A stretch of 64,000 bases of DNA from a virus: the IMG/VR virus record IMGVR_UViG_3300035670_000078, positions 1-64,000 of that record; one strand, given 5' to 3'. Below are positions 19,136 to 36,745 of this stretch, piece by piece; within the stretch, counting starts at the first letter, position 1, and every line of letters begins with the position of its first letter. The translations under genes were made by a program, and so were the position numbers. The notes beneath the pieces are model-generated. The model was not told the origin of the DNA. It saw nothing but the letters and a program-made list of their open reading frames with translations, and made no database searches.

Positions 19136-21356
19136 ATGAGCGAGTCAGACGACACCAGGATGCTGAAGTTCCTGGCTAGCGAGATCGCTGAGGCGGCTGG
19201 CTGGAAAAGCAAGTCGCCCGTGTATGCAGCCGCTCATGTCCGAGCCCTCATCCTCAACCTCAAGACAGAGTTGGAAGTCGAGACGAAGCTGAGGAGGATC
19301 GACACGACCGAGCTTCGTCGTCAGCTGAAGGAAGCAAAGCTTAAGCATGAGTGCGACAGGATCGCACTGGAGAATGCTATCGACGCCAGCAAGGAGGGAG
19401 CCTGGATGGCACGCGCCCTAGATGCTGAGCGAGAGCTTGGCCTCCTCAAGAAGCATCTCGATGAGAGCTGGCAGGAGTGCCACGACGGCTCCGAGTCAGC
19501 GTGCAGCAAGTCACACGAGTGAGACAAGCTGTGGTAACTCAATGCTATGCCATTGAGATATCACGACGTATTCATTCCTCGTTCTCTCTGGGAAGATCCA
19601 GCATTCAAGAAGCTCACACCACTTGATCAGTGCGTGTTGTTCAGGCTTTACGGATATGCTGACACGGATTATCGTGGTCACTTCCCTAACAAGCGTCTAT
19701 CAAACGCGCACCTGACTTACGAAGACATGGATGCGTCGCTGATGGAGCTGATTCATGTTGGCTTGGTTGAGCTCGTTGAGTCTTACGAGAAGTTCACTGA
19801 CGGCCGCTTGAAGTGCGGATACGATCTTGGCTACTCGAAAAAGACCAGCCCGCGTCGGGCTGGCTTTGTTTGGCGTCTCGTGCACAGGAGTGATGACATT
19901 GGATCCTAACGCAGCCCTCTATGGTTTCCTCGTTAGCGCAAGCGACGGGAACGCATCGGCGATGGGAGAGTATTGTGACGGTCTGTCCTCTTGGCTTGCC
20001 AAGGGAGGCTTTCCTCCCGAGTGGCACGCAACGGCTAGGAAGGCAGCGGACGTTGGTTGCTACGGTGGCAACTACACGGCCTGTCTTCAGAAGGTGAGAA
20101 GTTTCTTTAAGGAGTGCCCATAATGCGATCAGAATACGAAGATGACATGATGGCTCGGATGCAAGCCCATATAGATCTCGAAGAGTGCGCCAAGATGGGC
20201 GTCACGCACTTTGGGATACCTGTGGCTTGGTCTCTGACTATGAAGAAGAACAAATGGTCAGGTTACGCTCCACTACCGGAGTCAACGGCAATGGGAGAGA
20301 TTCATATGGGAGAGGCTTGATTGATGTTGCTACATGTAGCAGTCGGTACTGTAGTTGGTCGTGCTCGTGTCATTAGAGACATCAGCCACAAGTACAAAAG
20401 CTCAAGGCATGATGACATCGACCCCACTACGTGGAGCACGGTTTATCTCGTTGTGCGAAACATGGGTGAGTACTTCGTCATCTACTCACCTCCGATAGAA
20501 AGCTACAGTGCTGACAACACAACAGTCTTCTGGTCAAACGAAGACGGTGAGTTGCTCAAGGACCCCACACCACTTCGGTTTGGTAGTCCCCGACGTGCTC
20601 TTTACTGGCTTGGTATCGGATGCGACGATCCCAACGAGCAAGACTATGAGCACGCTCTGCCAAAGACACCACACTCTTCCAACGAACCTTACAGCAACTA
20701 CAACTATCCGCTGATTCAAAAGCTAGCTGAAATACCAAACCTTCATGTCATGAAAGACAGCCGTAGCACCATGACTACAAGGAACTTAGAGATCAGCATT
20801 GATGACAGGTCGACTGACAAACAACCGCAATATCCTTGGTGGACTACTAACTGCGATGTCTATTACTTCAAAATAAGTATTAGAGGTCATAGCGTGAGTA
20901 TCTGCTCAAAGACAAAACGTCAGGACCCTATCAGCTTTAGCTTTCCAAACACAATTGCTAGCGAAGTCTTGCAAATGCTTCAAGTACTTACCGAATATGC
21001 AAGCACAGGCAAGTACGAAAACGACTTCGACTACTTCTCAACAATATCAAAACCTAGCCGAAAATTCTAATCTAGCAGGGTTACCTATGACCGACGATAG
21101 CGATCCTGATTGGCGCTGGCATAATCACAACCGCTGCGGCGTGCTCCGAAAGGAGCACTTCACCTACACCGTCTGGTTAACAACACGAGATGTGAGAGAC
21201 GATGCGCCGTCATGGTCAGCAACAGTCTCGATGATGCGAAACTTCAGCATCACTACAGAGATAGCAATCGGCTCGGGAAGTACTTGGCAGGAGGCAGTTA
21301 AAAACGCCAGAGAGAAAGCCAAGGACGAGTTCCTGCTTCTAAGCAACGAAGTCTAG
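19136..21356 (+). other. hypothetical genes (19136-19522, 19547-19909, 19893-20123, 20123-20320, 20324-21070, 21087-21356)
   Basis: consecutive + ORFs; the last two are visibly AT-richer. Confidence 0.6.
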
Positions 21357-21360
21357 CCCC

Positions 21361-21396
21361 AAAAAGAAAAGGCCCCTGCGAAGGGGCCTTTCTCTC
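21361..21396. terminator. bidirectional terminator
   Basis: A-tract AAAGGCCCCT-GCGA-AGGGGCCTTT between convergent genes. Confidence 0.8.
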
Positions 21397-21449
21397 TGAA
21401 CCATCAGAAGCGCTATTTCCAGATACTCGAAGGTATCGCGCTCTAACTA

Positions 21450-21722
21450 TCAGAGCGGAGCGGGGTAGCGGTTGAGGGTCGGGAGGATCAGGATGGGGAG
21501 CTGACGGTTCTGGCCGCCGGTGAGCGAGCCGCCATTGACAACGTCACCCTGGGGGAAGAGCGCGGTCAGGTTGGTGAGGCAGTCAGCGATGGCCGCCTCG
21601 CGGTCGCCGCCGGAGCCGGTGGCGAGAACGCCGGCCGAGCCCTCGAAGTAAGCAGTAGCAGTGGTTCCGTCATACGCGGCCCGGATAACGATAGGGCCTT
21701 CACCGTGGTATGCAACAGCCAT
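21450..21722 (-). CDS. small protein, possibly virion-associated
   Basis: AAGGAG RBS; strongly biased codons. Confidence 0.65.
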   Translation of the reverse strand: MAVAYHGEGPIVIRAAYDGTTATAYFEGSAGVLATGSGGDREAAIADCLTNLTALFPQGDVVNGGSLTGGQNRQLPILILPTLNRYPAPL

Positions 21723-21815
21723 TTGGCTTCTCCTTGCAGTTAGGGCACTAGCGCCCAGGCATCAAGACTCTACGGCAGGCCCCGATCCGCCTGTAACGTT
21801 GCGCGTTGAGGGAGG

Positions 21816-24800
21816 TCATTCCCCCTTGTCGAAATCGGGTAGGTCAAGCTCGTTCCTGACGTCTTCCCACCAACTAGCCGCGCTCTTTTCTTTGTCAAGG
21901 GCACGCTCATTACGGGCGTGCTCCATCCTCTCTTCATAGCTGAGAGGCTGCGTGTCGAGCATAATTTCCATGCCGGACTCAGCCGTCAGACCTGTACCGA
22001 TAATTCCCGTCTGCTTTCTTGCGCCCTGTAGCGCAATCCAGACGGACATAACTCGGTCGTCCGTGTGCTCATCGGGGGCGTAAACAAGGCACCCCTGTAT
22101 AAAGCTTTGTATCTCGGGGTCAACCTGGCCTGTTTTTGCCCTCGGGATATCCCATAGTCCTTGTGCAAGCTCGGCGGCAAGCGATTCAACACCGTAGAAG
22201 GTGTGCCGCTTATTTCTAACCGTGCCGGTGCCACGGGTTTGAAAAGGAAACACCGGGACAAAGGGGGCCTTTTTTCGTATCAGCTGGAGGATCCACCGCT
22301 GGGCAAATAGTGACTCGACGAACACGAGGGACTTGAACCTCATGTGGGCTCTGACAATCCGGTCGATGATCTCGTTGGCGTCCCAGTTTCCGGCCTCGAT
22401 GTTGATCAGGCTGATCCGTCCATCGGGCTTGATCATCAGCGTCGATATTGCCGTGACGTCCGCCCCGGCTGATTCACTGATACCAAGGTCAACGCCGGTA
22501 AAGGTTTGGCAGCCGGGAGGCATCTGGGCGAGCGCCCAGCACATCGTGTCGTCACCAAACATGCCGTGACCCCGCTCGAGAGCGGCGGTGAACCATGCCT
22601 CCCTGAAGCGGCCCGCTTCGTCTGACCGGGCTTTGCAGTCAAGCGCGCGTGCAACTTCCCAGGGGGTACGCCGCATCTCGAAGTCTTCGATGCGGTCTTG
22701 GGGCCATCTTTCGGGCCAGTAGGATTTCTTCGTGACCGGGTCGCGCACCGGGAACACGTAATGGTTCCAGCCGGCCATCCTAGCAAACCGGTGGAGCGCG
22801 TCCTCGCGCGACCATGCGTTACCGATCAGCCAGATGCGCCCGTTGCGGGTGATACGAGACATCGGGGTGGTCAGCATCCAGTTGAACACGTCGTCCCGCA
22901 TGTACTCGGTGGCCGTGTTTTCCGACGTGAGGAAGTCGTCGCCGATAACCAAGTCGAAGCGGCGGCCGAGAATATTACCGTGCACACCAGCCGCGAGAAC
23001 CGTGGGGTCCTTGATTGTCGGGGAGCGCTCAACAGACAGCGAGGTGGTCGTCCATTCCACACCGCGACGGACGTGCGGGAAGATCCGCTTATACTCTGGT
23101 GAGTGCTCTATGTATCGCTTGATCGTACTGACGATGTCTTCGGCGAGGCCTTCAGTCGCTTGAATGATACAGATACGGATGTTCGGGTTCCTACCGATCT
23201 CCCAGAGGGATCGACCGATCGAGATCTGCTGCGTGTTGTGAGTCAACATCCCATCCGTCAGGTGGGTGTGCTCCTCACTCTTGATCGTGACGGCATAGGT
23301 CGCTTCGACGCCTGCGCTGATAACCGCCGCCGTTTTGATCCATCTCCACGTCGGCACACCCTCCCGTGCTTGAGCAAGATGCCGGACAAGATGATCGGAC
23401 TGTGGGAGCAGCGTGTTTTCATCCAACCCCACAGCTTTTCCGCCGATGAGGCCAAGGGTCCACTTATAATTATTGGACAGCGCCTTAACGACCGGGTTTT
23501 CAAGTGTGTGCTTATCGAGCACAGACAAGATGTCTAGAACCGTTATCATCTTTATCTTAACGAAGTACTTGAAAGACTTCTTTATGAGAAAGAGATCAGC
23601 GTTGATGCCCGCGACCTTCAGCATCCAGTACATGCCCAAGTAGGTGGACCTATTAAACTTGGGTAGCACAGTGTACCCCATGTTCTTCTGATCCGTAATC
23701 TGCATGAGCAAGAAGCCAGCGACAAATGCTTTTGCAGCTTCTGGTGTAAGCTGAAACAGTTCCGGGTGAAAGAAAGCAGAATTACGGGACGTCACGGTCT
23801 GTGCGGTGACCGTTAGACTCTCGTTCTTCAAGTTGACGTAGTAACCCCTCTCATTCAACCAAGAGGTGATACCTTCAACAACTAAGTACTGCTTACGGGT
23901 CAGCGTGAACTCGTTTTCCTTCGAGGGAAAATAGAGGAACCGGAACCCCATCTTGTCGCAGAACCGTTTGATCAGCCGGACGACGTCGTACTCGTTTGAG
24001 ACGAGCTTAGGCTTTATGGTCCAGCTGAGAACTAGCTCAGCACCCAGGTAGGCTTTTGGAACAGGGATGCGCTTGGCCATGCCATTCAAGAGCACGCCGA
24101 GGGCAAAGGCATCCTCTGAGGACATGTCAGAGTATTTATCGAGCTTGGGATACTGACCGAGCGTCGCGATGCGGTGATGCCTCTTGAGCACGTTGCTGGC
24201 CATGCTCCAACCCTCGCGAGGAGGGGGAGCGCCGCGAGTCATGTTGACGCCGACGTAGACGGGGTGGTTGTTGCTGTAGACGCCAATCGCCCCACACTCC
24301 GAGGTAATCATCGTGCAAGGTACGTGGCCATCGTACTCAATGCTTTCGACCTCTACCCATTCATGGGACCTTGTCTTCTGATTAAGGGATAGGACCTCTA
24401 CTTTATTGCCCGAATCAAGGTCCGCTTTCAACTCGAGCAGCGTGACTGGCAGACCATCCCGACGAATGAAAATCGTCTGTGCTGTGACGCAGTTATGAGT
24501 GACGGTGAACGAGCGACCTGCCAAGTAAGTGTGTGTCGGATGCTCGACACCGATGCACTTCATCAGGGTGGGCGGCTGAGGAATGATCGCTTTGACGCCT
24601 TTCACAAAGGCTGCCGTGATATGAAGAATAACACCTTCTACACTGACGTGCAGTCCAAGCGATCTAGCAGCTTCGGCTAGTGCTAGCGCGTTCTCTTCTG
24701 AGCCAACAGTGACACGAGACGCGCCGCCGACAACTGACGCTCGGGACAGCCAGTACTGAACTTCACGTACCCGCTCATCCACCGTAGGGAAGCCAGCACC

Positions 24801-25394
24801 AAAATTAACGGGCAGTGTGAGCGGTATCCACCAATACCCTTCGGAGCAAAGAAGCATTTCTTTGGTGGACAGCACTCTACTTGGAAGGCTTCTTAGTCTG
24901 TCGTGGTATCCGTCTGCGGTCCACCAAGCGAGCCACTGGTGGTCTCCGCAAGCGACCTGCGTGGTGCCGTCAGAGAACACGAGCATGTAGGCGTCGCGCT
25001 CCGTCACCTCCGTCTCCGAGATAACTCGTGTCGGGGTGCCGTCCATGGCGAATACCAAATCACCTGGATGGATATCTGCAAGCAGCTTCCACCCAGAAGG
25101 AGTTGGTATCTCCGTTGTTATAGGTAGCGCTTTGCCCAGCTCAGTATGCCCAAGAATGGACGCCGCCTTCGAGGCCGTGCACGCCTCCTGCAGCTTTTCA
25201 TGGTAAGGAGCCTGCCTAATAGGCTCTTGAGTTTCTTCATCCCGGAGGACGTACTGGACAAAATAGTTGGGATCCTGCCTAGAAAGTGATACCCGGTACT
25301 CATCGAGTTGCTGTTCTAGTTTCTCGATGGCAGAAGGGTCTTCCTTCTGTAGCCGAAGAAGTTCGGCTCTAATCTCTTCATCAGACGAGAACAT
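21816..25394 (-). CDS. terL: terminase large subunit with two inteins
   Basis: spliced Walker A GHTELGK/T; GRRFDLVIGDD Walker B; IGNAW; YWPERW; GVDLG..D nuclease motif; DDRVMS. Confidence 0.92.
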   Translation of the reverse strand: MFSSDEEIRAELLRLQKEDPSAIEKLEQQLDEYRVSLSRQDPNYFVQYVLRDEETQEPIRQAPYHEKLQEACTASKAASILGHTELGKALPITTEIPTPSGWKLLADIHPGDLVFAMDGTPTRVISETEVTERDAYMLVFSDGTTQVACGDHQWLAWWTADGYHDRLRSLPSRVLSTKEMLLCSEGYWWIPLTLPVNFGAGFPTVDERVREVQYWLSRASVVGGASRVTVGSEENALALAEAARSLGLHVSVEGVILHITAAFVKGVKAIIPQPPTLMKCIGVEHPTHTYLAGRSFTVTHNCVTAQTIFIRRDGLPVTLLELKADLDSGNKVEVLSLNQKTRSHEWVEVESIEYDGHVPCTMITSECGAIGVYSNNHPVYVGVNMTRGAPPPREGWSMASNVLKRHHRIATLGQYPKLDKYSDMSSEDAFALGVLLNGMAKRIPVPKAYLGAELVLSWTIKPKLVSNEYDVVRLIKRFCDKMGFRFLYFPSKENEFTLTRKQYLVVEGITSWLNERGYYVNLKNESLTVTAQTVTSRNSAFFHPELFQLTPEAAKAFVAGFLLMQITDQKNMGYTVLPKFNRSTYLGMYWMLKVAGINADLFLIKKSFKYFVKIKMITVLDILSVLDKHTLENPVVKALSNNYKWTLGLIGGKAVGLDENTLLPQSDHLVRHLAQAREGVPTWRWIKTAAVISAGVEATYAVTIKSEEHTHLTDGMLTHNTQQISIGRSLWEIGRNPNIRICIIQATEGLAEDIVSTIKRYIEHSPEYKRIFPHVRRGVEWTTTSLSVERSPTIKDPTVLAAGVHGNILGRRFDLVIGDDFLTSENTATEYMRDDVFNWMLTTPMSRITRNGRIWLIGNAWSREDALHRFARMAGWNHYVFPVRDPVTKKSYWPERWPQDRIEDFEMRRTPWEVARALDCKARSDEAGRFREAWFTAALERGHGMFGDDTMCWALAQMPPGCQTFTGVDLGISESAGADVTAISTLMIKPDGRISLINIEAGNWDANEIIDRIVRAHMRFKSLVFVESLFAQRWILQLIRKKAPFVPVFPFQTRGTGTVRNKRHTFYGVESLAAELAQGLWDIPRAKTGQVDPEIQSFIQGCLVYAPDEHTDDRVMSVWIALQGARKQTGIIGTGLTAESGMEIMLDTQPLSYEERMEHARNERALDKEKSAASWWEDVRNELDLPDFDKGE
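23235..24491 (-). mobile_element. intein 2 (419 aa, Cys-start, degenerate LAGLIDADG region)
   Basis: CVTAQTIF..SNNHPVY..TYAVTI..GMLTHN/T; central AFALGVLLNG and AFVAGFLL helices. Confidence 0.85.
24492..25130 (-). mobile_element. intein 1 (213 aa, Ala-start, class 3-like)
   Basis: ALPITTEIPTPSGW..CGDHQW..MKCIGV..VTHN/C; W-C-T signature. Confidence 0.88.
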
Positions 25395-25397
25395 GCC

Positions 25398-26165
25398 ATG
25401 TCCTTAAACGACGACGTTGATAAGCTGACCGGATACAGCCGTATCAATCCCATCAGCTTTACTCTTGTGACTGTTCTTTCCCTGCCACTGGCTGGCAGTT
25501 GCGCGAGTGATGCCTTGGCAGAACCGCCGCCTGTCATCACCGAGATCCGGCGGGCTCCAAAGCTCCCTGTGAAAAAGACTGTCGAAGCGAAAGCGGCGTT
25601 CAGCTCCGAGCCGGGTGTCGGTCCCATGTGCATCGTGGAGTACCTTCCGCCAACCCATATGGGTGTACTACTAGAAGAAGCACCCTCCGAGGAAGAAAGA
25701 GTTGTTGTTGAGCGTGCAATATCTAAGTGTGCGCGCGACGTCAGCACTGTAGCTGACCCTTGGAAAGTCCTGGCTCTGCATCGGCTAGAGAAGGACCTCG
25801 GCGTTCCGAAGGAGGTCGAGAGTCTTCTCATTGCTACTTGGTGTTGGGAAGGAGCCATGCGCTCCGATAAGCCGATCCGTGGTGACTACGCAGGCGGTAA
25901 GGCTCACAGCTTTGGCCCATTCCAGATGCAGGCTTGGTTCTGGGACTGGTGCAACCTACCCACCTCCCCCATCGTTTATGATGACCTGACCGTGGCGGCG
26001 ACCTGCTACTGGTCACGAGTTCAGAGTGTGGCCGAGCGGATGGACTGCCCGGCGAAAGACCGATGGCCGGCCGCTGAGGCGATGGCGGCGAACGGTATGA
26101 AGTACAAGCACTACGGCTGCAAGGCTCGCAGCAAGCATTGGAAGGAGCTTGAGTCATGGAAGTGA
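25398..26165 (+). CDS. membrane-anchored protein, possible lysozyme/transglycosylase-like fold
   Basis: N-terminal hydrophobic segment; WE..RGD..SFGPFQM resembles the E..GxxQ SLT motif. Confidence 0.5.
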   Translation: MSLNDDVDKLTGYSRINPISFTLVTVLSLPLAGSCASDALAEPPPVITEIRRAPKLPVKKTVEAKAAFSSEPGVGPMCIVEYLPPTHMGVLLEEAPSEEERVVVERAISKCARDVSTVADPWKVLALHRLEKDLGVPKEVESLLIATWCWEGAMRSDKPIRGDYAGGKAHSFGPFQMQAWFWDWCNLPTSPIVYDDLTVAATCYWSRVQSVAERMDCPAKDRWPAAEAMAANGMKYKHYGCKARSKHWKELESWK

Positions 26166-26359
26166 CGCACCTCGAACCGTACATGAAGCAGACGTTTCAC
26201 CGGGTGAGCCGCGTGAAGGTCTATCACACGATCATGCGGCTTCTTCACGAGGTCCACCTCGGGAAACACCTCAACGGGCAGGAGCTGATCTGTGTCGATG
26301 CGCAGGACCTCGAGGACGTTCTCGAGTGGGCGCGCGAAAGAGCAGAGCCTAAAAAGTGA
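26156..26359 (+). CDS. hypothetical protein
   Basis: AAGGAG upstream; overlaps previous stop. Confidence 0.55.
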   Translation: MEVTHLEPYMKQTFHRVSRVKVYHTIMRLLHEVHLGKHLNGQELICVDAQDLEDVLEWARERAEPKK

Positions 26360-26649
26360 ACGGAATCAGACTCTTGTAAAAAAGTTTTGGGGGCGTGCAT
26401 TTTTCTGTTGCGCCCAGTCTGAAGTGGCTGTAGAAGCCATCTCCTCCTCGACGGAGTTCCTCGGTTCGCCCCTCGGTTCTTCTCCTGGAGTTGTCAGCCA
26501 CCGATTCGTTTGTGCCCCCGTGCTTTCGTTTCGGTCCGTTGACTCCTTTTTGCTCTTCCTTTTTGGTTTTGCTTTTTGGAGTTTTCGGTAAAGGGTTTCG
26601 TTGGTTCACCCCCTCGTTTCCCAAGAGGCCCCTGAGGCCCGCTGATAAC

Positions 26650-26686
26650 AAAAAAGCCTCGGCTCCCCGCCGAGGCTTTTTTGTTT
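26650..26686. terminator. bidirectional terminator
   Basis: AAAAAAGCCTCGGC-TCCCC-GCCGAGGCTTTTTT. Confidence 0.85.
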
Positions 26687-26700
26687 GGGCTACGTCTGGA

Positions 26701-27828
26701 TTAGACGGTGACGCTGCACGCGCCGCCGGTGACGCCAGAGCCAGCCGAGCCGGACTGAATGGTCGCGTCGCCGGTCGAGAGACAGAAGACGCTCACGCGC
26801 CCGCCGGTGCCGCCGACGCCCGCCGTACCAGCAACGCCGGTTCCGGTCTTCGCGCCGCCAGCGCCGCCCGTTCCACCCGTGGCACGGCAGAGGTTGACGA
26901 CAGTGACGTCCTCGACCTTGGAGCCGTAGACGAAGACGACTTCGCCACCGCCGCCGCCACCGCCTCCACCACCGCCGCCGCAGTTGCCCGCAGCGCCGTC
27001 AGCACCGATGCCGCCGTTTCCGCCGACAGCGGAGATCGCGCCTGCCGCAGTGCTGTTGCCGAGCTGGAGCTTCTGGCAAGCAACGAGGACGACGCTCGCG
27101 CCGCCACCGCCGCCACCACCGGCGCCGCCCGAGGCGGACGAATCACCGCCGCCACCCGCACCACCCGCACCACCGGCGCCGCCAGCGACGAGGGTCGCGC
27201 CAGCAACACGGCCGTCGAGGGTCGCGCGGTTGACGTAGAAGTTGGCCGAGACAGCCGCGCCAGCGCGGAGAGCGCCACCAGCGCCGCCCGAGCCGAGACC
27301 ACCGGCCGAGCCCTGACCACCCGCGCCACCGTTGCCGAGAGCAACAGCCGAAGGAGCCGAGGCCTGAGAGCCCGCCGTGGTCGAGCCGTTGCCGCCGGCC
27401 GAACCAGCGCCAGAAGCAGCGACGAAGGTCGAGGCCGCAACCGCAGAACCGGCCGTGGCGCCCGAGGCATTATTTCCGTTGCACTTAATCGCATTGGCAC
27501 CAGCACCAACGAGATTGAGCGTACGGGCAAAGAGGCGGAAGCCGGCGGTATTGATCGAGCCGCTGCCGGTGATGGTCAGCGTGTCGAAGTAAGCGTCGCG
27601 GGTAAGCGCGCCCGAGGTGAGGGGACCGCTCGTCGCGTTGCTGGTCGTGACAGTGAGATCTCCGTCCGTGGGCTCACCAACGAGCACGGCGCCGGAGAGG
27701 GCCTCCTGAAGCTGGTAAATGCGGGAGAAGAGGGAGTGGTTGTAGATCACCGGGGGAGCGCCGCTCTTGTCCGCAGACGCAGCAGCCTCCTGGGTGAGGG
27801 CAGTGGCAACATTCTTGTAGTCGGTCAA
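26701..27828 (-). CDS. glycine-rich virion/fibre-like protein
   Basis: AGGAG RBS, TTG start; GGxGGxGG polyglycine tracts. Confidence 0.8.
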   Translation of the reverse strand: MTDYKNVATALTQEAAASADKSGAPPVIYNHSLFSRIYQLQEALSGAVLVGEPTDGDLTVTTSNATSGPLTSGALTRDAYFDTLTITGSGSINTAGFRLFARTLNLVGAGANAIKCNGNNASGATAGSAVAASTFVAASGAGSAGGNGSTTAGSQASAPSAVALGNGGAGGQGSAGGLGSGGAGGALRAGAAVSANFYVNRATLDGRVAGATLVAGGAGGAGGAGGGGDSSASGGAGGGGGGGASVVLVACQKLQLGNSTAAGAISAVGGNGGIGADGAAGNCGGGGGGGGGGGGEVVFVYGSKVEDVTVVNLCRATGGTGGAGGAKTGTGVAGTAGVGGTGGRVSVFCLSTGDATIQSGSAGSGVTGGACSVTV

Positions 27829-27905
27829 GGTCGGGCTCCTGTGTTAGTGAGGACCTGCAGCAGTCATGTGTGCTGCAATTATCGAACACGGAAAGGTGGT
27901 GCGTC

Positions 27906-28157
27906 ATGGCAGGCAAAGCGAAGAAGCGTCGTATGGAGAGGGAGAGGAGAGAGGGAGAGGAGCTGAAGAAGATCATCATGCACCGTCTCCGGGAGAGGGT
28001 AGCTGCAAAGAAAGAGACGATGATCACCATGGCGAAATTGATCGACGCGCGTCTCAAAGAAGAGGCGGCCAGCGATCCGATTATTTCGGGGTACACGAAA
28101 AAGCCGAGACCAGCCTCCTCTCCCTCGGAAAATACCCCGAGCATGACCTCCGAATAA
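27906..28157 (+). CDS. basic hypothetical protein
   Basis: AAGGTGG RBS. Confidence 0.55.
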   Translation: MAGKAKKRRMERERREGEELKKIIMHRLRERVAAKKETMITMAKLIDARLKEEAASDPIISGYTKKPRPASSPSENTPSMTSE

Positions 28158-29001
28158 TCCGACCTCGGGTCTCCCATTATTTAAGAAGCACCCCAAATAA
28201 TCAGTGGGCTCGCTTTAAAAATACCAAAATAATGGTTTTGACCAAAGACACACCACCTCTGACCGGGTGGTTCAAAAATCGACCTCGGCCGCCCGTGCGG
28301 ACCGGGGCGATTTGGGTTGACAAATTTCAAAAAGTAGTGCAGCCTCCGCTGCGCAGCTTGGAAGGAGGCGTCGCGCAGCGACAATCGGCGAACGCCGAGA
28401 AGGCAAGCGACGCTGACGAGCAAGCGCGGACGGAGGCAGCCGCAGGCGAGTGCATCCGAGCGCGGAGGCTGCCGAACGGGAGCGATAACACGCGCGAAGC
28501 GCGTAACGCGGAGCGTTTGGGCTACGGGCTGAGAGCCTCAGGCCGTGAGGCCGGGTGGATTATTTGCTGGGGCGCAGGCGACTGCGCGCTCGGCGGGTAG
28601 GACACCTTGAAAGGTCCCTGTGGTCCTACGGACCCTGGGTTGGGAATGCGGATGTCTCCCCTCCTTCCCTCTCCCCCTATCCTCATCATCCTCCTCTCCC
28701 TCCTATCTGTCTCTCCCTCTCCCTGATGCACAACCACGGCGTGACGGTAGTGGGGGGAGAGGGGAGGGGAGGGCACGGGCCGGAGGCCGGGGAAGAGGCC
28801 GGGGGTTGCCATCGGCCCTCGGGTGGGTTAGAGCTGCCCATGAGAGTAGCTTATGTTGCGCCGGCGGCCGCCGGATGGTGCTTCGGTTCTGGGCGCCACG
28901 GCGGGCCGCCCCATCTTAGGGTAAAGGTTTTTACCCTGCGCCCCGCGCGGCGCTCTCCCCGGCCCATTGCGCGGGCCGGCGGGCCATGGCATGGGGGATG
29001 G

Positions 29002-29340
29002 ATGCTGTCCCGCCAAACCATCGTCTATTTGGCCTCCCCCTGCTCCGGGGATGTGGATGTTGCGCGGGCCTATGCGCTGCTGTGCGTGGCCGATGCGCTC
29101 GGGCGGGGGGATTATCCGGTGGCGCCCACGGCCCTGTTTGTGTCCGCCTTCGATTCCTTCATCACCGAGGATGAGGAGCTTCAGGCCGCCACCATGGGCG
29201 AGGTGATCGCGCGCTGCGATGTCTTCGCCGCCTATATTGATATGGGCTGGACCCCTGCGATGGTCGCGGAGCGGGATCGGGCGCTGGCGTCCGGGATGCC
29301 CGTTGAGGAGCGCCGGGTCTGCTCGTCCGTGCAGGCTTGA
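29002..29340 (+). CDS. nucleoside 2-deoxyribosyltransferase-like (DUF4406/DUF7768-type) protein
   Basis: VYLASP.SG..A..RG.YP.AP..CD....Y.D.G.T..M..E...A...G.PVE. Confidence 0.75.
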   Translation: MLSRQTIVYLASPCSGDVDVARAYALLCVADALGRGDYPVAPTALFVSAFDSFITEDEELQAATMGEVIARCDVFAAYIDMGWTPAMVAERDRALASGMPVEERRVCSSVQA

Positions 29341-29367
29341 AAAAATCAAGCTGCTAGCACAATCTTG

Positions 29368-29396
29368 TTGCTCACACGGTCGAGTGGGTGTAGACA
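29368..29396 (+). promoter_or_regulatory. sigma70-like promoter, possibly leaderless
   Basis: TTGCTC-17 bp-TAGACA; ATG 6 nt later, no SD. Confidence 0.4.
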
Positions 29397-29402
29397 TGGG
29401 GC

Positions 29403-29705
29403 ATGGACAACCTCAAAGCCCGCAACATCGTCATGGAAGCCGTTCGCAAGAGCGGCAACATGTCCGCCATCGCAAAGACGCTCGGCTGCCACCGATCGTT
29501 TCTCTATCAATTCGCCCGCGCTGAAGGCCCCAACCTCGGCCCGCAGATAGTCAGCCGGATGCGGCAGCTACCCGCGTTCGAGGACATCGATGATTCGGTG
29601 TGGCTTATCGCCATGGGCGTCAACGACAACATCCCTAAGATCGAGGATGGTGAGCGTTCGAGCCCGCATGGTCCTCGGCCTCGTACCTGGGTCAGGAGGT
29701 CTTGA
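29403..29705 (+). CDS. HTH transcriptional regulator
   Basis: GNMSAIAKTLGCHRSFLYQF HTH pattern. Confidence 0.7.
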   Translation: MDNLKARNIVMEAVRKSGNMSAIAKTLGCHRSFLYQFARAEGPNLGPQIVSRMRQLPAFEDIDDSVWLIAMGVNDNIPKIEDGERSSPHGPRPRTWVRRS

Positions 29706-32700
29706 TCATGGTGTCACCCATTGACGTCTATGGCACCGCTCGGCACGCGCTCACCCTCACGCATTGGAAATGGTTGCCGGGGATGGTGACAACGGGCGGG
29801 ATCGTCGTGTCTGTGAAGCCTGAGGTCATCACGATATACGATCGTGGTCTCCTTCGGCTCCTTGGCGAGACCGAGCTTCCCGACCTGCACAACCCTGCGA
29901 CTGAAGGTCATCTCCTCCAGCTTGTGCGTGATGCGTGGGGCACAGACGACGCCTGCATCTACAGGGTCTTCGGTGACCGCTGGGAGGTCGACGGCATCGA
30001 CTTCGCTGGGGTCTTCTATTACCGCTGGGAAGCCCTCGTGGCTGCATTGGAGGCCGCGCCGTGAAGGTCAATATCATACACGACGACATCCTCATCTATC
30101 CGCAGACCTCTGAGTCCGGCCGTATCGAGATCGGCTACGAGGTGCGCACTGGGATGCAGGTCGGCACTACACCGATTGTGTGCCGCATCCTGGCCCCTCT
30201 CAACTACCCCGACTGCTGGTTCTACGTTCCTGGTCGCAGCCTTTTCAAGATCCTGGCCGAGATCAAGGACGGGTTCATCCCCGAGTGGATGAGCCTCGCT
30301 TGCTATGAGCAAGGATGGCGGGAACTGGTCGATGCTGGCTATCAGCTTAGCCTGTTCAAGAACGAGCATGACGTGGTGGCGCGCGACTTGAGAGACGCTA
30401 AGCAGCTCAACCAAGAGCTTGAGGCGAAGGTCGCTGAGCTTGAGGCGAAGATCAAAGAAATGGAAGCACAGCCGCCTTGGAAGCCTGAGCCAAGCTTCTG
30501 GATCGGGAAGCTGAAGCAGGAGACCGCGCCGTGAAAGAAAACAGAGCCGTGGCGAAAGTTCGCCGTATTATTGCAAAGCGTTATTTCGGCAGTGAGGCGT
30601 TCTCCGACGTGCCAGTCTTTAAAGACTGGGGCTGCGTTGTCGACGCCGAGAAGCTCGTTGTCATCAAACACGGTACGTGGAGAGATCAAACGCCCGGATG
30701 TCAGGCAGCTCTCCTCAAGGACGGTCGTGTTGTGCTCATCCTTGGCGGTCAGGTCATGGATCCGAGGACGGGCATCGGGATGGGCGAGACCACGCTCGAG
30801 ATGGTGGCGATCGCTTTGCGCTGGCTGGATTTCATCACCGACGACGAGCTGAGGAAATACCGAAGCTGGCTGAGCGAAGAGCGGTTCAAAAAGGATAAAG
30901 ACTCCAAGAGGAAGTCCTTCTTGGAGCAGGCCAGACTGCTTGGCTACCGCGTCGTATTTGAAGGTGAAGAATGAACTCAAGTGTAAGAGAACTCGACCAC
31001 GCCCAGTGGGCAATCGCCCGCGTAGTGCAGGTGATGCAGAAGCTCAACGTGCCTGCGGAGATGAAGGTCTACACGGAACTGACGGCGCTGCTGTGCAAGG
31101 CAGCCTCGCTGGCCGTGAACCGAATCGACTTGGCTGAGGCAGGCATCGACGACTTCCCCGGCTTCTTGGCCCGGTGGGAGGAGAAGGTTGCTCCTCTGCT
31201 GAAGCAGATCAAGGAGCGGTCATGATCGAGAGGCGCCTACCGGATGGAACGATCACTACCGACCAAGCGCGCTACGTCGAAGAGTGGTTCAACCTTGCCG
31301 ATGAGGTGGCCTCGCTATTCCCTGGCTATCATGTCAACGGCGTCGACCCGAACATAAGCCTATGGAAAGGGCTATCGACTTTGAGCCTGACCTTGGAGCA
31401 GGCCAAGCTGCTGCTCGCGGAAGTGAAGCGGAGGGAGCTGTGCCAACAGATAAACAAGTACTCGGTGCTCGCATCAGAGCCGCCGAAGAAGCTTACGTAA
31501 AGAAGCATCGTAAGCCTTACAAGGGAGGCGGCTGGATTATCCCCTCTAGGCAAGAAGTGCACGGTCACCTGAGCGCCATGTTTGATATCCCTGTAAGAGA
31601 CATAGGGTTTTTCCTTACGTACAGTAGAAACTGCACCCACACATGGGCGCAAGGAGCATGTGATGCCTGCCCAGATTAATGTCGGGGACGAGGTTATTGT
31701 TGACTGTGGGAACACCGTAAAAAGAGAGAAGGTGGTCAAGGTAGGCAGAAAGTACCTGACCGTCTCTCACGGTGAGTCCTCTATCCACGATGAGTTCTCT
31801 ATCGAGACGGGCAAAGAGAAAGGCCACGTCAGGGGCTTTCCAAAGTATCTCTACACGTTGGAGCAATGGCACAGGCGCCAGGCCTTCATCGAACTAGCGA
31901 AGTCTCTGAGCCACCTGAAGCATCAGGTGGACAAGTGGAACATTTACGCCTGCGAGTACCTGACCCTCGAGTGGCTGGCCGATGCCAAGGCCAAGATTGA
32001 TGAAATCACCGAGGTCATCGGTGGCAGGGCTATCAAGCCAACAGAAGGAAAGTGAGCCATGACGAAAGAAGAGATCGCTAACACCGCAATCAAGTATGTC
32101 GAACTGTGTACGCTAGCCGTGCAGGCTCAGCATGAGTACCGGCCTAGCCCATCAGCAAAGCGGAACTCGGAGTTGGCCCTCGATTATCACGAGGCCATGA
32201 CTGAGATGGCGCGGGCCGAGCTTCAGCTTCATGCGCAGGTCTGGGCGTACAAGGAAGAGCAGGCCAAACAGAAAATACGTGACGCCGAGGAGTGGAAGCC
32301 GTGAATAGAAAAGCTAGTGAAAACCTTATTCAATTGGCAAGTACCAAGTGCAAATTTGTTGGCGCTTTCGTCGGCGAGCCCTTTGCCCGCGAGGTCGTCT
32401 GGACCGGCGAGCGCTACGAGACCTTCGACCCCGCAATCCACACCGACAAGCGCCCGATCCTCCGCGTGATGCTCAACTTTTTCGTACCAGCCGAAAGCGC
32501 CATGAAGGTCATCGAGGGCGGCACCGTTTGGTTCAAGGACGTCCTCAAGGTCCGCGACAAGTACGGCCTCGACAAGTGGCTGTTCGAGATCGATTATCAA
32601 CGAGAAGTCGGCGATGAGAGGGCGATCTGCAGCATCTGGCCCGAGAAAAAGATCGACGACGCGATGCGCGCCCGTATACGCACCATGCCAATTTTTGATT

Positions 32701-34105
32701 TGCCGGAGTTTGTTATCAATCTTGACGAGGAGCGGATGCCGTGAAGAAGTTACCCGTGAGCGACGATGGTTATTTCTTACTGCTCAACTGTCCGCGCTGT
32801 GGCGAGATATGTGAAGAGATGCCCGCTAACGAGCCAGAGCCACCCTATGATTTTCCTCATTGGGAGGAGGGTGACAAGGGTGTCTGCTCATGCGGCGCTC
32901 CGCTTGAAGTTAGAGTTGATGGTGAAAGGGCATACCTCATTGACATGGAGGAGAATGAATCATGACAAGCTACGAGATACAGGCCGTCAAAAATCATATC
33001 GACAACATCCCTGCAATGGCGGGGATGTATCTGCCTGTCGTGCTGGCATGGGTCGAACTCTACAAAAGGAAGCTCGACGCCGTTGGAGAGGTGCTGAGCG
33101 AGAACGGCTGCGACTGCGAGTGCGATCATGACTTCGAGTCGCATGACGACGACTGCGAGCGTTGCCTCGCGTGCCGTGTACAGGGGGCTCTGAATGAACG
33201 CTGATCTCGTCACATGGCACCTCGACATCGACACGAGCGGGGCCGCGCTCCAACGCTTCGCACATGCGCTGCTCTCGACTGGCGGCTCGCTGCTGCCGTC
33301 GAGGCTTATCATGGGAGAGATGGGGCGCGGCGTCACAGCGATGGTCGTCGTGCAGCTACCGGCAGGGCAGGACAAGAAGTTCAAAGAACTATGCAAGCCC
33401 CAGCTGATGAAGCCACCACCTAAGGTCAACTGGGGCATGGGGGTCAGCGGATTTCGGGCGAAACCTCGCCACAACCTCGCTGCGACCTCGAATCAACCTC
33501 CGGCTTCGGAGAGTGATGATGGTTGACATCTTCCGCAGGCATAACACGTCCGAGCCCGACTGGAAGCAGCTCAAGCTCGACCTCACCAAGTGCTTGTGGC
33601 GCAAGCACATGGCGTTAGGCTGGAAGCTGCCAAAGGAGCGCGCCAAGTCGTGCCGAGCAGAACTGCCTGCCATCGGCTGGATCAAGTTCGCGATGGTGAA
33701 TGGCATCTATCGCTGGGTGACATGGTGCATCGGCGAAGGCATGAAGACCTATCACCGGGACGAGATGCAGGTTGCTGTCGATGATCTATACAGCAGCCTG
33801 CTCGGTATCCATGCACGGCTCAGCAAAGGCATCGGAGATTTCGATTTATGAACTTCATGGAAGAGTACAACGACATGCTCCGATTCGGCGAGTGCCTGAC
33901 GAAGATGAAGACATGGCGCTGGCTCAGGGGGATGGTCGTCATCAAAGGAAAGTCGTGGCGACGACTCGAGAGCTACGAGGTCAGCGTGGACGGCACGCCT
34001 GACCTGCATGACCGAGCGACTATTCTGCTCACCATTGACCTGCTCAGACATGACCCCGAGTACGGGGACGTCAGGGAGAAGCTTGAAGAATGGGCAGACG
34101 ACTAA
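29702..34105 (+). other. cluster of ~14 translationally coupled small hypothetical genes
   Basis: ATGA/GTGA overlaps at 30061, 30531, 30971, 31222, 32301, 32741, 32962, 33848; 29702-30064 and 33848-34105 share W.WL.GMV..PDLH..AT; 31660-32055 has KVVKVGRKYLTV beta-barrel motif. Confidence 0.7.
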
Positions 34106-34250
34106 AGGTTTGGCGTGAGCGGGCGGGCGTTATATCAGAGGTGCCCGTCTGGTGCGTCTACCTCGACGGATACTTGTACATTCACGAGTCTTTTTGCGGG
34201 CTTGTGAAACAACTTACCTTTGAAAGAAATAACGATAAGCATCAGGTGGG

Positions 34251-35516
34251 ATGATGGGGTTGCATCACAGCTGGACAGTGACCGAGGACACGGGGACCAG
34301 AAAGACCTCGGTCTGTCAGACATGCGGCATCAAGGTCGAGCATAGTTCGAAAAGCTCGCCGAGCATTTTCTCGTCGGGGAGGCTGCTGAACGGCAACCCT
34401 ATCAAGATAAGGGAGCCGCTCCCGCTCTGTATAAATGCTGTCAAGCGCATCAAGCTCGCGCCGCGCCACGTGTGGGTTGCGCTTGGCGACGCTCCTGACT
34501 CGCCGTCGGGGGCAAAGTGTCATGCTGTGCAGTGCTCTGAATGCGGCATGACCGTGGAGGCCATCAAGAGCCTCAAAGGTGTGGCCGCCAAGAACGTCGT
34601 CCCAGGCATCTGGAGGCGCTACCGGACCTCTGAGACCGAGGAGTGGAATCGCGGATGCCCTCCACCGTGCAAACCCAAGCACGAGGACAAGATCGGAGAG
34701 TTTGTGAAGGCGAACTGGGACAAGATCACCATCGCCGAGATCGCGAGAACGCTGAAGATCAGCGAAGACACGGTCAGGGCTAGGGCCAAACGGATTGGCC
34801 TCAAGAGCAAGTTCACCGCTGGCGGCGACCGCCCATGGACCGAGCGAGAGGACCAGGCCGTCATCTGGCACTTCGGCGTGAAGAGTGCCAAGATGATCGC
34901 CAAGGAGATCGACCGAACTTACAACGCCATCATCCGTCGAGCCTACAAGCTCGGGCTGGTCAAGCAGGGTTGTATCCAAGGCTATGAGTCGCTCGAGCAG
35001 GCCTCGAAGCGCACCGGCTACAACATCGAGCAGCTGCGCCGGATGATCAAAGGCCGGAACATCATCCCCAGAAAGTCCGAGGGGTACGTCGAAGCCCGCG
35101 CAGGTAAGACCAAGCGCAAGCTCTACAGCATCGACGACATCGACGAATGCGTGGAGGCGTGGCACGAAACCGAGACCTTCACGCAGGGCTGTATCCGACT
35201 GGACATTGATCCTCATGTGATGAGGAAGGCGCTAGAAAAGATCGGCGTCGTGAAGCCGCCCGACATCAAGGGAAAGATGTGGCGCGTCCCCTCAGACAAG
35301 CTTGAGGAGGCCGCAGCTTATCAGCGCACCCTCATCTCCCCGACTGAGTACGCCAGGCTGCGAGGCATCAGCCCGAATACGATAATTAAGAAACTGAAGA
35401 AGGTGGGCATCGAGCGGCCATTCAGGTCCTCTGTGTGGTACCTGCCTGAGTCAGTCATAGAGGAAGCACTCAAGCTTAACCCTATCGAAACCAAGTTTAA
35501 GAGGAAAGACCTATGA
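34251..35516 (+). CDS. multi-HTH DNA-binding protein with N-terminal Zn-ribbon motifs
   Basis: CQTCG, CSECG; TIAEIARTL..TVRARAKRIGL; WTEREDQ..IAKEIDRT. Confidence 0.7.
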   Translation: MMGLHHSWTVTEDTGTRKTSVCQTCGIKVEHSSKSSPSIFSSGRLLNGNPIKIREPLPLCINAVKRIKLAPRHVWVALGDAPDSPSGAKCHAVQCSECGMTVEAIKSLKGVAAKNVVPGIWRRYRTSETEEWNRGCPPPCKPKHEDKIGEFVKANWDKITIAEIARTLKISEDTVRARAKRIGLKSKFTAGGDRPWTEREDQAVIWHFGVKSAKMIAKEIDRTYNAIIRRAYKLGLVKQGCIQGYESLEQASKRTGYNIEQLRRMIKGRNIIPRKSEGYVEARAGKTKRKLYSIDDIDECVEAWHETETFTQGCIRLDIDPHVMRKALEKIGVVKPPDIKGKMWRVPSDKLEEAAAYQRTLISPTEYARLRGISPNTIIKKLKKVGIERPFRSSVWYLPESVIEEALKLNPIETKFKRKDL

Positions 35517-36745
35517 GCAACGTCAATCATCCTAATCATTACAACAAAGGGGGGATGGAAGTCGCGGTGGCGATGGACCTCCTCAACTATCCGAGTCAAT
35601 GGCTCGGTCATGCGCTCAAGTACGCCTGCCGCTCGCCCCACAAGGGCAAGGAGTTTGAGGACCTCAAGAAGGCGATCTGGTGCGTCCGCCGCGCTGTGAG
35701 TGCAGGTAGCTGCAAGTGGGAGCAGTGGCTCGAGAAGCCTCGGCTCCAGACGATCCGCGACGCGCTGCTGCTCGGCGTTCCCGAGGAACGCACATGGACA
35801 CGCGCCTTCATTAACGCGCTGCTGACGGACTACTACATGTCGCCCGAGTCGCTGCTGGCGGCGTGCGACACACTTGAGCTTGATATAAGCAGCCTTGAGC
35901 CGCCGGTCGAAAAGAAGACCGTGGTGAGCGACGAGTTCTCGAAGGCGGCGTTCGAGATTCTCTTCTGTGGTGGGGGCGCGATGACGCAGACCCCGCCGCC
36001 GGCGACGTCCCCGCCACCACCGGTATCCGGTGACATGCACAAGGCTCAGCTCAACACGCTGTCGGAAACACTTCATAAGCTCAAGTCAAAGAGCAAGCTG
36101 GATATAGAGATCAGTAGCCTTGAACGGCGTTACAAGACCGCCATCGACTACTTGGAAGAGGAAGGAAAAGAGCTGCGCAGCCAGCTTAAGGAAAGGGTCG
36201 AGCTGATCGCCTTCTGCGAGAGCCGCCATCTGGCCATGAAGGAAATGCTCGACCGAGCGCACGAAGAGGTCGACAGCCTCAAGAACGGGACTGTGGCGAA
36301 GCAGGTGCAGGACTTCCAGCGAATGATCGGCCGTCCCGAGCCCATCGTCCCCATGGTACCCGAGGATGACGTCGTGAAGCTTCGGATGCGCCTCGTGATG
36401 GAGGAGGCCTTCGAGGTTCTTGAGAGCTGCTATCACAAGCATGAGTGGGTGAACGACATCAAATCGTACGTGATGGACCGCATCAACATGTACCGACCGA
36501 ACGTCTCGATGCCCGACTTGGTGGATGGTCTGGCCGATCTCGACTTCGTGGTCGAAGGTACACGTCAGGAGATCGGTGTGATCGGCGCACCTGTCGCCAA
36601 GCTTGTCTACGAGGCCAACATGGCTAAGATGAGCGGCCCCGTGGACGAGCACGGGAAGAAGAGGAAGCCCGAGGGATGGAAGCCGCCCGATATCGCTGGC
36701 GAGCTTCGTCGTCAGGGCTTCGACCCGTCGAAGGAGATGAAATGA
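35513..36745 (+). CDS. DUF3310 + MazG-like NTP pyrophosphohydrolase fusion
   Basis: VNHPNHY..KY..R..HKG..EDLKKAIW; RLVMEEAFE..DGLADL..ANMAK..GK..KPEGW.PPD. Confidence 0.85.
   Translation: MSNVNHPNHYNKGGMEVAVAMDLLNYPSQWLGHALKYACRSPHKGKEFEDLKKAIWCVRRAVSAGSCKWEQWLEKPRLQTIRDALLLGVPEERTWTRAFINALLTDYYMSPESLLAACDTLELDISSLEPPVEKKTVVSDEFSKAAFEILFCGGGAMTQTPPPATSPPPPVSGDMHKAQLNTLSETLHKLKSKSKLDIEISSLERRYKTAIDYLEEEGKELRSQLKERVELIAFCESRHLAMKEMLDRAHEEVDSLKNGTVAKQVQDFQRMIGRPEPIVPMVPEDDVVKLRMRLVMEEAFEVLESCYHKHEWVNDIKSYVMDRINMYRPNVSMPDLVDGLADLDFVVEGTRQEIGVIGAPVAKLVYEANMAKMSGPVDEHGKKRKPEGWKPPDIAGELRRQGFDPSKEMK

Follow-up and report, generated by a model that had tools for sequence, protein, structure and literature searches.

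Two putative inteins were found stacked without a linker in the large terminase (TerL) gene of a large uncultured phage, represented by IMG/VR virus record IMGVR_UViG_3300035670_000078 (101,255 bp, estimated to be ~68% complete). The window, the whole stretch of DNA analysed here, comprises positions 1 to 64,000 of that record. The gene (21816..25394, minus strand) is a single uninterrupted frame of 1192 amino acids and the only TerL copy in the record. Its Walker A motif is cut at GHTELGK|T by 632 amino acids, taken up by two whole inteins with zero extein residues between them: a predicted class 3 intein (intein 1) followed directly by a predicted class 1 intein (intein 2). At a probability of roughly 0.75, these are two independent, splicing-competent inteins stacked at the GK|T site of an essential T7-type TerL, the class 1 intein as the resident and the class 3 intein as a mobile newcomer.

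Deletion of both inserts joined 88 and 472 residues into a 560-residue protein with a canonical Walker A, GHTELGK-T, fitting the pattern G-x4-GK[ST]. Without the inserts the ATPase and nuclease match typical of T7-type large terminases was retained. The PHROGs profile phrog_38 matched residues 730-1178 of the precursor, and phrog_15 matched the N-extein together with the first part of intein 1. TerL also matched NCBIfam NF033889 'termin_lrg_T7' at 70.6 bits, below the curated cut-off of 150. In tblastn searches TerL matched 680 phage TerL genes, each at <30% identity. By sequence, the product is accordingly classed as a T7-type large terminase. The original prediction, made from the letters of the window, had placed two abutting inteins of 213 and 419 amino acids in the terminase Walker A at 23235-25130; these coordinates and lengths proved exact, at residues 89-301 and 302-720, with no extein residue between them. 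Its further points, namely an Ala start and a W/C/T class 3 signature for intein 1, a Cys start for intein 2, one Cys (residue 302) acting both as +1 residue of the former and as residue 1 of the latter, and a restored GK-T in a TerL of ~560 residues, were all upheld by the alignments and profile matches given here and in Table 1.

Table 1. Coordinates in the window of the TerL precursor, its exteins, the two inteins and their key residues
Feature	Coordinates	Strand	Remark
TerL precursor open reading frame (ORF), 1192 amino acids + stop	21816..25394	-	phrog_38, E 6e-56; NF033889, E 1.2e-19
N-extein, residues 1-88, MFSS...GHTELGK; Lys88 = 25131-25133	25131..25394	-	P0004 (nearest relative) has an identical MFSS... 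start
Intein 1, 213 amino acids, residues 89-301, ALPITTEIPTPSGW to FTVTHN	24492..25130	-	predicted class 3; 6bs8, E 2.7e-18
Intein 1 Ala1 (Ala89)	25128-25130	-	no nucleophile at residue 1
Intein 1 block B His64 / Trp66	24939-24941 / 24933-24935	-	alignment to 6bs8
Intein 1 block F Cys192	24555-24557	-	alignment to 6bs8
Intein 1 Thr211-His212-Asn213	24492-24500	-	C-terminal end
Shared Cys302: +1 nucleophile of intein 1 and residue 1 of intein 2	24489..24491	-	Cys invariant in 19/19 aligned tandems
Intein 2, 419 amino acids, residues 302-720, CVTAQTIF to GMLTHN; Asn419 = 23235-23237	23235..24491	-	predicted class 1; Foldseek
C-extein, residues 721-1192, from TQQISIGR; Thr721 = 23232-23234	21819..23234	-	remaining ATPase and nuclease domain

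By homology and predicted fold, insert 1 is a class 3 intein. PDB sequences matched by it were the DnaB-1 inteins of M. smegmatis (6bs8) and M. chimaera (6rix/6riy). In the alignment to 6bs8, W66, C192 and T211 of intein 1 fall on Trp67, Cys118 and Thr137, the WCT triplet (B:12, F:4, G:5) of the M. smegmatis intein, Msm DnaBi1 (PMC6195587). Intein 1 combines this triplet with a non-nucleophilic Ala1, a C-terminal Asn followed by Cys at +1, and a HINT fold indicated by homology and by a moderate-confidence model of the tandem, which matched 6bs8_B in Foldseek at E 2.1e-8 (template modelling score normalised to the target, 0.66). Among relatives, residue 1 of intein 1 is A, E, L, D, G, P or S, and at +1 single alleles have T or S and every tandem has C.

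With 213 amino acids, intein 1 falls ~125 short of the ~340 amino acids that its counterparts have in most relatives. Its middle (residues ~71-173, window 24612-24920) was modelled as helix-strand-strand-helix-strand-strand, that is, as half a LAGLIDADG domain, and the position of the motif reads ..SVVGGAS.., with no acid. At third codon positions the G+C fraction of this remnant is 0.47, lower than in the splicing blocks on either side (0.66-0.68) and in the C-extein (0.71). The endonuclease remnant (~100 amino acids) thus appears to be drifting, whereas canonical LAGLIDADG motifs are still present in most copies of intein 1 (consensus ..WLGDG.. and ..LDTDG..).

Judging from its predicted structure and terminal residues, insert 2 is an intein of class 1 that contains a LAGLIDADG-type domain. 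Its key residues are Cys1, block B S73-N-N-H76-P77, the C-terminal ...EHTHLTDGMLTH-N419 and Thr+1; His76 and Pro77 are invariant in 21 sequences. Sequence searches with intein 2 came back nearly empty, except for a weak match to the Mxe GyrA intein over its final 37 residues. An AlphaFold2 model was obtained from an alignment of 21 homologues (predicted local distance difference test (pLDDT) 82.6, predicted template modelling score 0.85). In Foldseek this model matched TliVMA (7qss, E 1.9e-13), PI-PfuI (5.3e-11) and PI-SceI (3.8e-9), and its central domain was matched by I-DmoI. The matches to these three inteins, like that of intein 1 to the DnaB-1 inteins, are far stronger than chance would give. 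The class 1 assignment follows Cys1, a (S/T)xxH block B, H418-N419 before Thr721, and an endonuclease domain lying between blocks B and F of the HINT domain. The two LAGLIDADG helices were located at residues 128-139 (..GVLLNG..) and 255-264 (..GFLLMQ..); the positions closing each helix, D or E in active enzymes, are non-acidic in all 10 aligned members. No Pfam LAGLIDADG match was obtained in any intein 2, and every LAGLIDADG_3 or Hom_end match of the tandem relatives lies inside intein 1. Both endonucleases of this phage are probably inactive, as far as their motifs tell.

Profile libraries scarcely register either element. The original prediction had proposed intein hidden Markov models (HMMs) as a check, and this check was answered in part: Pfam, applied to the whole protein and to each intein separately, gave neither an intein nor a terminase match, and NCBIfam gave weak intein matches only. 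The parts were identified through PHROGs, PDB sequences and predicted fold. 'Hypothetical proteins' of 900-1700 amino acids that belong to this TerL family are terminases whose inteins standard intein profiles overlook.

A word-index search with the C-extein, together with phmmer run exhaustively against 1.84 billion cluster representatives, yielded 171 homologues. Allele state was called from HMMs of the splicing blocks of both inteins and from the residues at the C-extein junction. Alignment to the extein HMM (hmmalign) left the N-extein and the inteins in the unaligned flank, and the junction-based calls were adopted. An empty GK site (e.g. GHNECGKTQL) was found in 79 of the 171 homologues, intein 1 only (THN followed by T or S) in 38, intein 2 only (GK, C...THN, TQQ) in 25 and the tandem of both inteins in 20; a third, unrelated Cys1 intein accounted for 4, and 5 were truncated or unclear. 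The empty, single and double alleles that the original prediction had proposed to look for in relatives therefore all exist, the single state with either intein. All 20 tandems have the class 3 intein first and the class 1 intein second, with a gap of 0 and an HN|C junction. The 19 tandem proteins besides the query were drawn from Logan, ENA, NCBI and JGI assemblies. A search of IMG/VR returned no relative above 42% identity.

Across the 19 aligned tandems, Lys -1, the block B His and Trp, the block F Cys and Thr-His-Asn are invariant on the intein 1 side, as are Cys1, the block B His-Pro, His408, the C-terminal His-Asn and Thr +1 on the intein 2 side. Compared with the nearest relative, P0004, the exteins are 88-89% identical, with long stretches at 97-100%, and the inteins overall ~40-55%. 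Within the inteins, the splicing blocks of both are 52-83% identical and the endonuclease or middle parts 13-37%. Because identity in exteins and splicing blocks far exceeds that in the endonuclease parts, selection appears to act on splicing and not on the endonucleases. By pairwise identity, intein 1 is better conserved than the exteins in 31/171 tandem pairs, a hint of horizontal spread of intein 1 that is too weak to rely on and was not used.

Several homologues carry inteins in other arrangements. P0078 was rejected as a tandem, since 39 extein residues part its two inteins; it has a class 3 intein at GK|T and, 39 extein residues downstream, a class 1 intein of the 'CE.KG...SHN' type (…GAMK|C…SHN|TYI…), so a relative of the second intein type uses another site too. 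The third, unrelated class 1 intein (GK|CLGLGT...TVTHN|T) sits at GK|T in P0025, P0072, P0088 and P0091, with Hom_end and LAGLIDADG Pfam matches in P0025; at least three intein lineages therefore compete for one codon boundary in one TerL family. Among P0011 (1590 amino acids), P0012 (1694), P0022 (1675) and P0032 (1392), some carry extra inteins at 2-3 other TerL sites, the extra sites lying at extein positions ~185/187, 229-233, 288 and 485. P0012 has three such inserts and an empty Walker A site; P0011 and P0022 have the tandem plus more.

An extein tree of 161 rows was built with FastTree. Tandems fall in two clades in which intein 2 is near-universal (29/35 and 13/13 rows), often as sisters of proteins with intein 2 only (P0008/P0009, P0007/P0011, P0037/P0038, P0036/P0039, P0044/P0074), and the tandem label must change at least 11 times to satisfy the well-supported branches. 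The intein 2 tree recovered identical sister pairs. Because it mirrors the extein tree in this way, intein 2 would have passed down together with the terminase. On the intein 2 tree the tandem label shows no clustering (12 changes against a shuffle mean of 14.6; 48-57 of 500 shuffles were as low). On the intein 1 tree, tandem copies are gathered in few clades, with 6 changes against 16 in shuffles. Intein 1 is found across the family, including 32 of 94 rows of a large clade nearly without intein 2. We read intein 2 as the old, immobile resident, beside which intein 1 has been gained or lost many times, at least 8 by the trees. Of the two, the class 3 intein upstream most likely came second and by its own mobility, at a site that the class 1 intein, its endonuclease dead, had long filled. 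With moderate confidence we favour repeated gain of intein 1 by homing, given that canonical LAGLIDADG motifs survive in most of its copies.

In the proposed history, the class 1 intein would have co-diverged with the terminase and, having lost both LAGLIDADG catalytic acids, would no longer home. The class 3 lineage, mostly with a recognisable LAGLIDADG endonuclease, would have stayed mobile across the whole TerL family, inserting after Lys88 whether the next residue was Thr or Ser, as at an empty site, or Cys1 of a resident intein. Since the intein 1 endonuclease has decayed as well in this phage, both elements would now be immobile passengers that must splice for DNA to be packaged.

For splicing, the class 3 pathway, in which the block F Cys attacks the N-terminal junction to form a branched thioester (PMC2807308, PMC5050341), was taken as the basis. 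Intein 1 would be synthesised first and fold first. Its block F Cys192 would attack the Lys88-Ala89 bond and the N-extein would be handed to the Cys302 thiol, after which Asn301 would cyclise and intein 1 be released. The N-extein would then sit on Cys1 of intein 2, either as a thioester, which is intein 2's own first intermediate, or as an amide after an S-to-N shift. From there intein 2 would move it to Thr721, and cyclisation of Asn720 would yield GHTELGK-TQQ. The opposite order would also be chemically possible: with intein 2 out first, the remaining THN|T would be the junction of natural intein-1-only alleles. The first order seems a reasonable choice given the chemistry and N-to-C synthesis. 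A class 3 intein followed by a class 1 intein would always provide the upstream intein with a +1 nucleophile; were the two swapped, the upstream intein would face Ala or some other non-nucleophile at +1 (Ser in one relative) for as long as the downstream intein stayed in place.

Several points weigh against this account. From the observed anatomy, homology, residue conservation, allele distribution and trees we infer that both inteins splice, in which order they do so, and which one invaded. A tandem ancestor from which intein 1 was lost precisely and repeatedly would fit just as well, the tree counts being blind to gain versus loss. The proposal of the original prediction that a second intein invaded a filled site is therefore borne out in part: empty, single and double alleles occur and intein 1 is patchy beside a resident intein 2, but repeated loss of intein 1 also accounts for this pattern. 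Moreover, the intein 1 endonuclease would have had to accept a target with intein 2 DNA, and not C-extein DNA, downstream, and the two junction DNAs have no evident likeness. The trees were quick or FastTree trees, and several intein rows are long-branched (1.61 for intein 1 of the query). The model of the tandem has a pLDDT of 73, with values <50 at the junction, and is uninformative on whether both active sites hold the Asn301-Cys302 bond together. The inactivity of the intein 2 endonuclease is suggested by motif alignment. A more specific version of the account, in which the class 3 lineage homes into an intein-filled site by reading mainly the N-extein half-site and the pair splices as a thioester relay onto Cys1 of intein 2, is possible, although we put the odds against it.

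The two inteins might instead form a composite unit, in which intein 1 only loads the N-extein onto Cys302, intein 2 finishes the reaction, and the 632-residue block leaves whole without Asn301 ever cyclising. After the second class 3 step the N-extein on the Cys302 thiol is just the acyl donor that intein 2 uses (PMC2807308, PMC5050341), and the zero-length linker is invariant. The His-Asn ending intein 1 is nevertheless invariant in 19/19 aligned tandems, which would be unexpected if cyclisation of Asn301 were dispensable, and the occurrence of each intein alone in intact relatives implies that each is self-sufficient; we regard a composite unit as unlikely. It is also rather improbable, being pure conjecture, that the stack is a regulatory device, along the lines of the gate on packaging suggested by the original prediction, in which ordered or conditional splicing, for example redox-dependent through Cys302 and Cys192, delays TerL maturation and times packaging. 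Among solved inteins the closest to intein 1 is Msm DnaBi1, which is inhibited reversibly when its catalytic Cys118 becomes oxidised (PMC6195587), and in a stack intein 1 has Cys at +1 in place of the Thr or Ser of single alleles. The occurrence of zero, one or two inteins in close relatives, even in sister taxa, is however the pattern of a selfish element and not of a conserved regulator. The disulfide of DnaBi1 joins Cys118 to Cys48 (PMC6195587), a partner that has no counterpart here; a DnaBi1-like redox trap was rejected, the query having Ala at the Cys48 position.

That one or both inteins are dead, in a decaying, non-functional terminase of a defective phage, would agree with the degenerate endonuclease parts of both, with the near failure of Pfam and NCBIfam intein models to detect either, and with a record only ~68% complete. 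We consider it very unlikely: the 1192-residue frame is open, all catalytic residues of both splicing domains are intact and invariant among the tandems, the exteins keep the high identity to P0004 described above, and the record has no second TerL. An assembly chimera, which the original prediction had named as a possible refutation, would consist of two single-intein alleles joined by the assembler; in its favour, the record was assembled from a metagenome, and each single allele occurs in nature. It can be excluded for practical purposes because the identical in-frame, zero-gap HN|C junction recurs in 19 further proteins of independent assembly and origin. P0004 shares the layout with closely similar exteins and far more divergent inteins, and a chimera would demand a precise in-frame join without duplicated extein. 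Nesting of intein 2 within intein 1 was rejected, as blocks A, B, F and G of intein 1 are contiguous before Cys302 and each intein occurs alone in relatives.

The surroundings of the gene were searched with PHROGs at window positions 21000-36000, and neither a portal nor a small terminase nor a capsid gene could be identified beside TerL. The only neighbours that received a name are a nucleoside 2-deoxyribosyltransferase-like ORF (28555-29340) and a nucleotide kinase/MazG-like ORF (35513-36745). TerL seems not to be part of a classical packaging module. An ORF of 375 amino acids on the minus strand (26701-27828) has a very high content of Gly, Ala, Ser and Thr and no PHROG match, and is located within a stretch of 70-75% G+C; it may encode a fibre-like or collagen-like structural protein. 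The long ORF antisense to it (26491-27966, plus strand) is probably spurious.

A filled homing site is presumed in intein biology to be protected from re-invasion, and each splice junction is presumed to join an intein to an extein. If the relay and homing into a filled site are true, an occupied homing site is not immune, inteins can serve each other as exteins, and the pair is a natural two-step, ordered protein-splicing system. Stacking is common in this TerL family: the tandem makes up 20 of 92 occupied alleles, beside empty and single ones. The family thereby offers a natural allele series for asking how a second element enters, how two HINT sites contend for one bond, and whether class 3 or class 1 fires first. 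For protein engineering, a zero-linker class 3/class 1 pair is a template for ordered, orthogonal and traceless two-step splicing. In full-text literature searches, which did not extend to most subscription journals, and in two actinophage intein surveys, no description of abutting inteins was found; as far as those sources extend, the stacked pair is a new, undescribed architecture of known elements.

Intein 1 resembles the class 3 inteins known from P-loops, namely Msm DnaB-1 (6bs8, PMC6195587), M. chimaera DnaB-1 (6rix/6riy), mycobacteriophage Bethlehem DnaB (PMC2807308) and mycobacteriophage TerL (PMC5050341), in its Ala1, its WCT triplet, its place in an ATPase P-loop and its THN end. It differs from them in that here and in the 19 relatives the +1 nucleophile is Cys1 of another intein and not an extein residue, and in that its endonuclease has shrunk to a half-domain remnant. 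Its host is a T7-type TerL of a large uncultured phage, whereas class 3 TerL inteins are known from TerL1 of actinophages. Intein 2 resembles the class 1 LAGLIDADG inteins TliVMA and PhoVMA (7qss, 7qst; PMC8966425), PI-PfuI (1dq3) and PI-SceI (1vde) in its Cys1, its (S/T)xxH, its terminal His-Asn and its predicted HINT and LAGLIDADG fold, and shares with such inteins a Thr+1 at the classic GK|T site, at 10-15% identity to any solved intein. Unlike TliVMA, PI-PfuI and PI-SceI, the intein 2 family lacks both LAGLIDADG catalytic acids throughout, and unlike other class 1 inteins, intein 2 has as its -1 residue the terminal Asn of another intein. Several inteins are known to target one ATPase, sometimes very close together, as they do here: the sites of TerL1-a and TerL1-b, inteins of different phages, differ by one residue (PMC5050341), Msm DnaB carries i1 and i2 (PMC6195587), and neighbouring inteins of haloarchaeal MCM influence each other's homing (PMC10643990). 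In those systems co-resident inteins are parted by extein residues and each junction has one owner, whereas in this TerL the single bond Asn301-Cys302 is at once the C-terminal junction of intein 1 and the N-terminal junction of intein 2.

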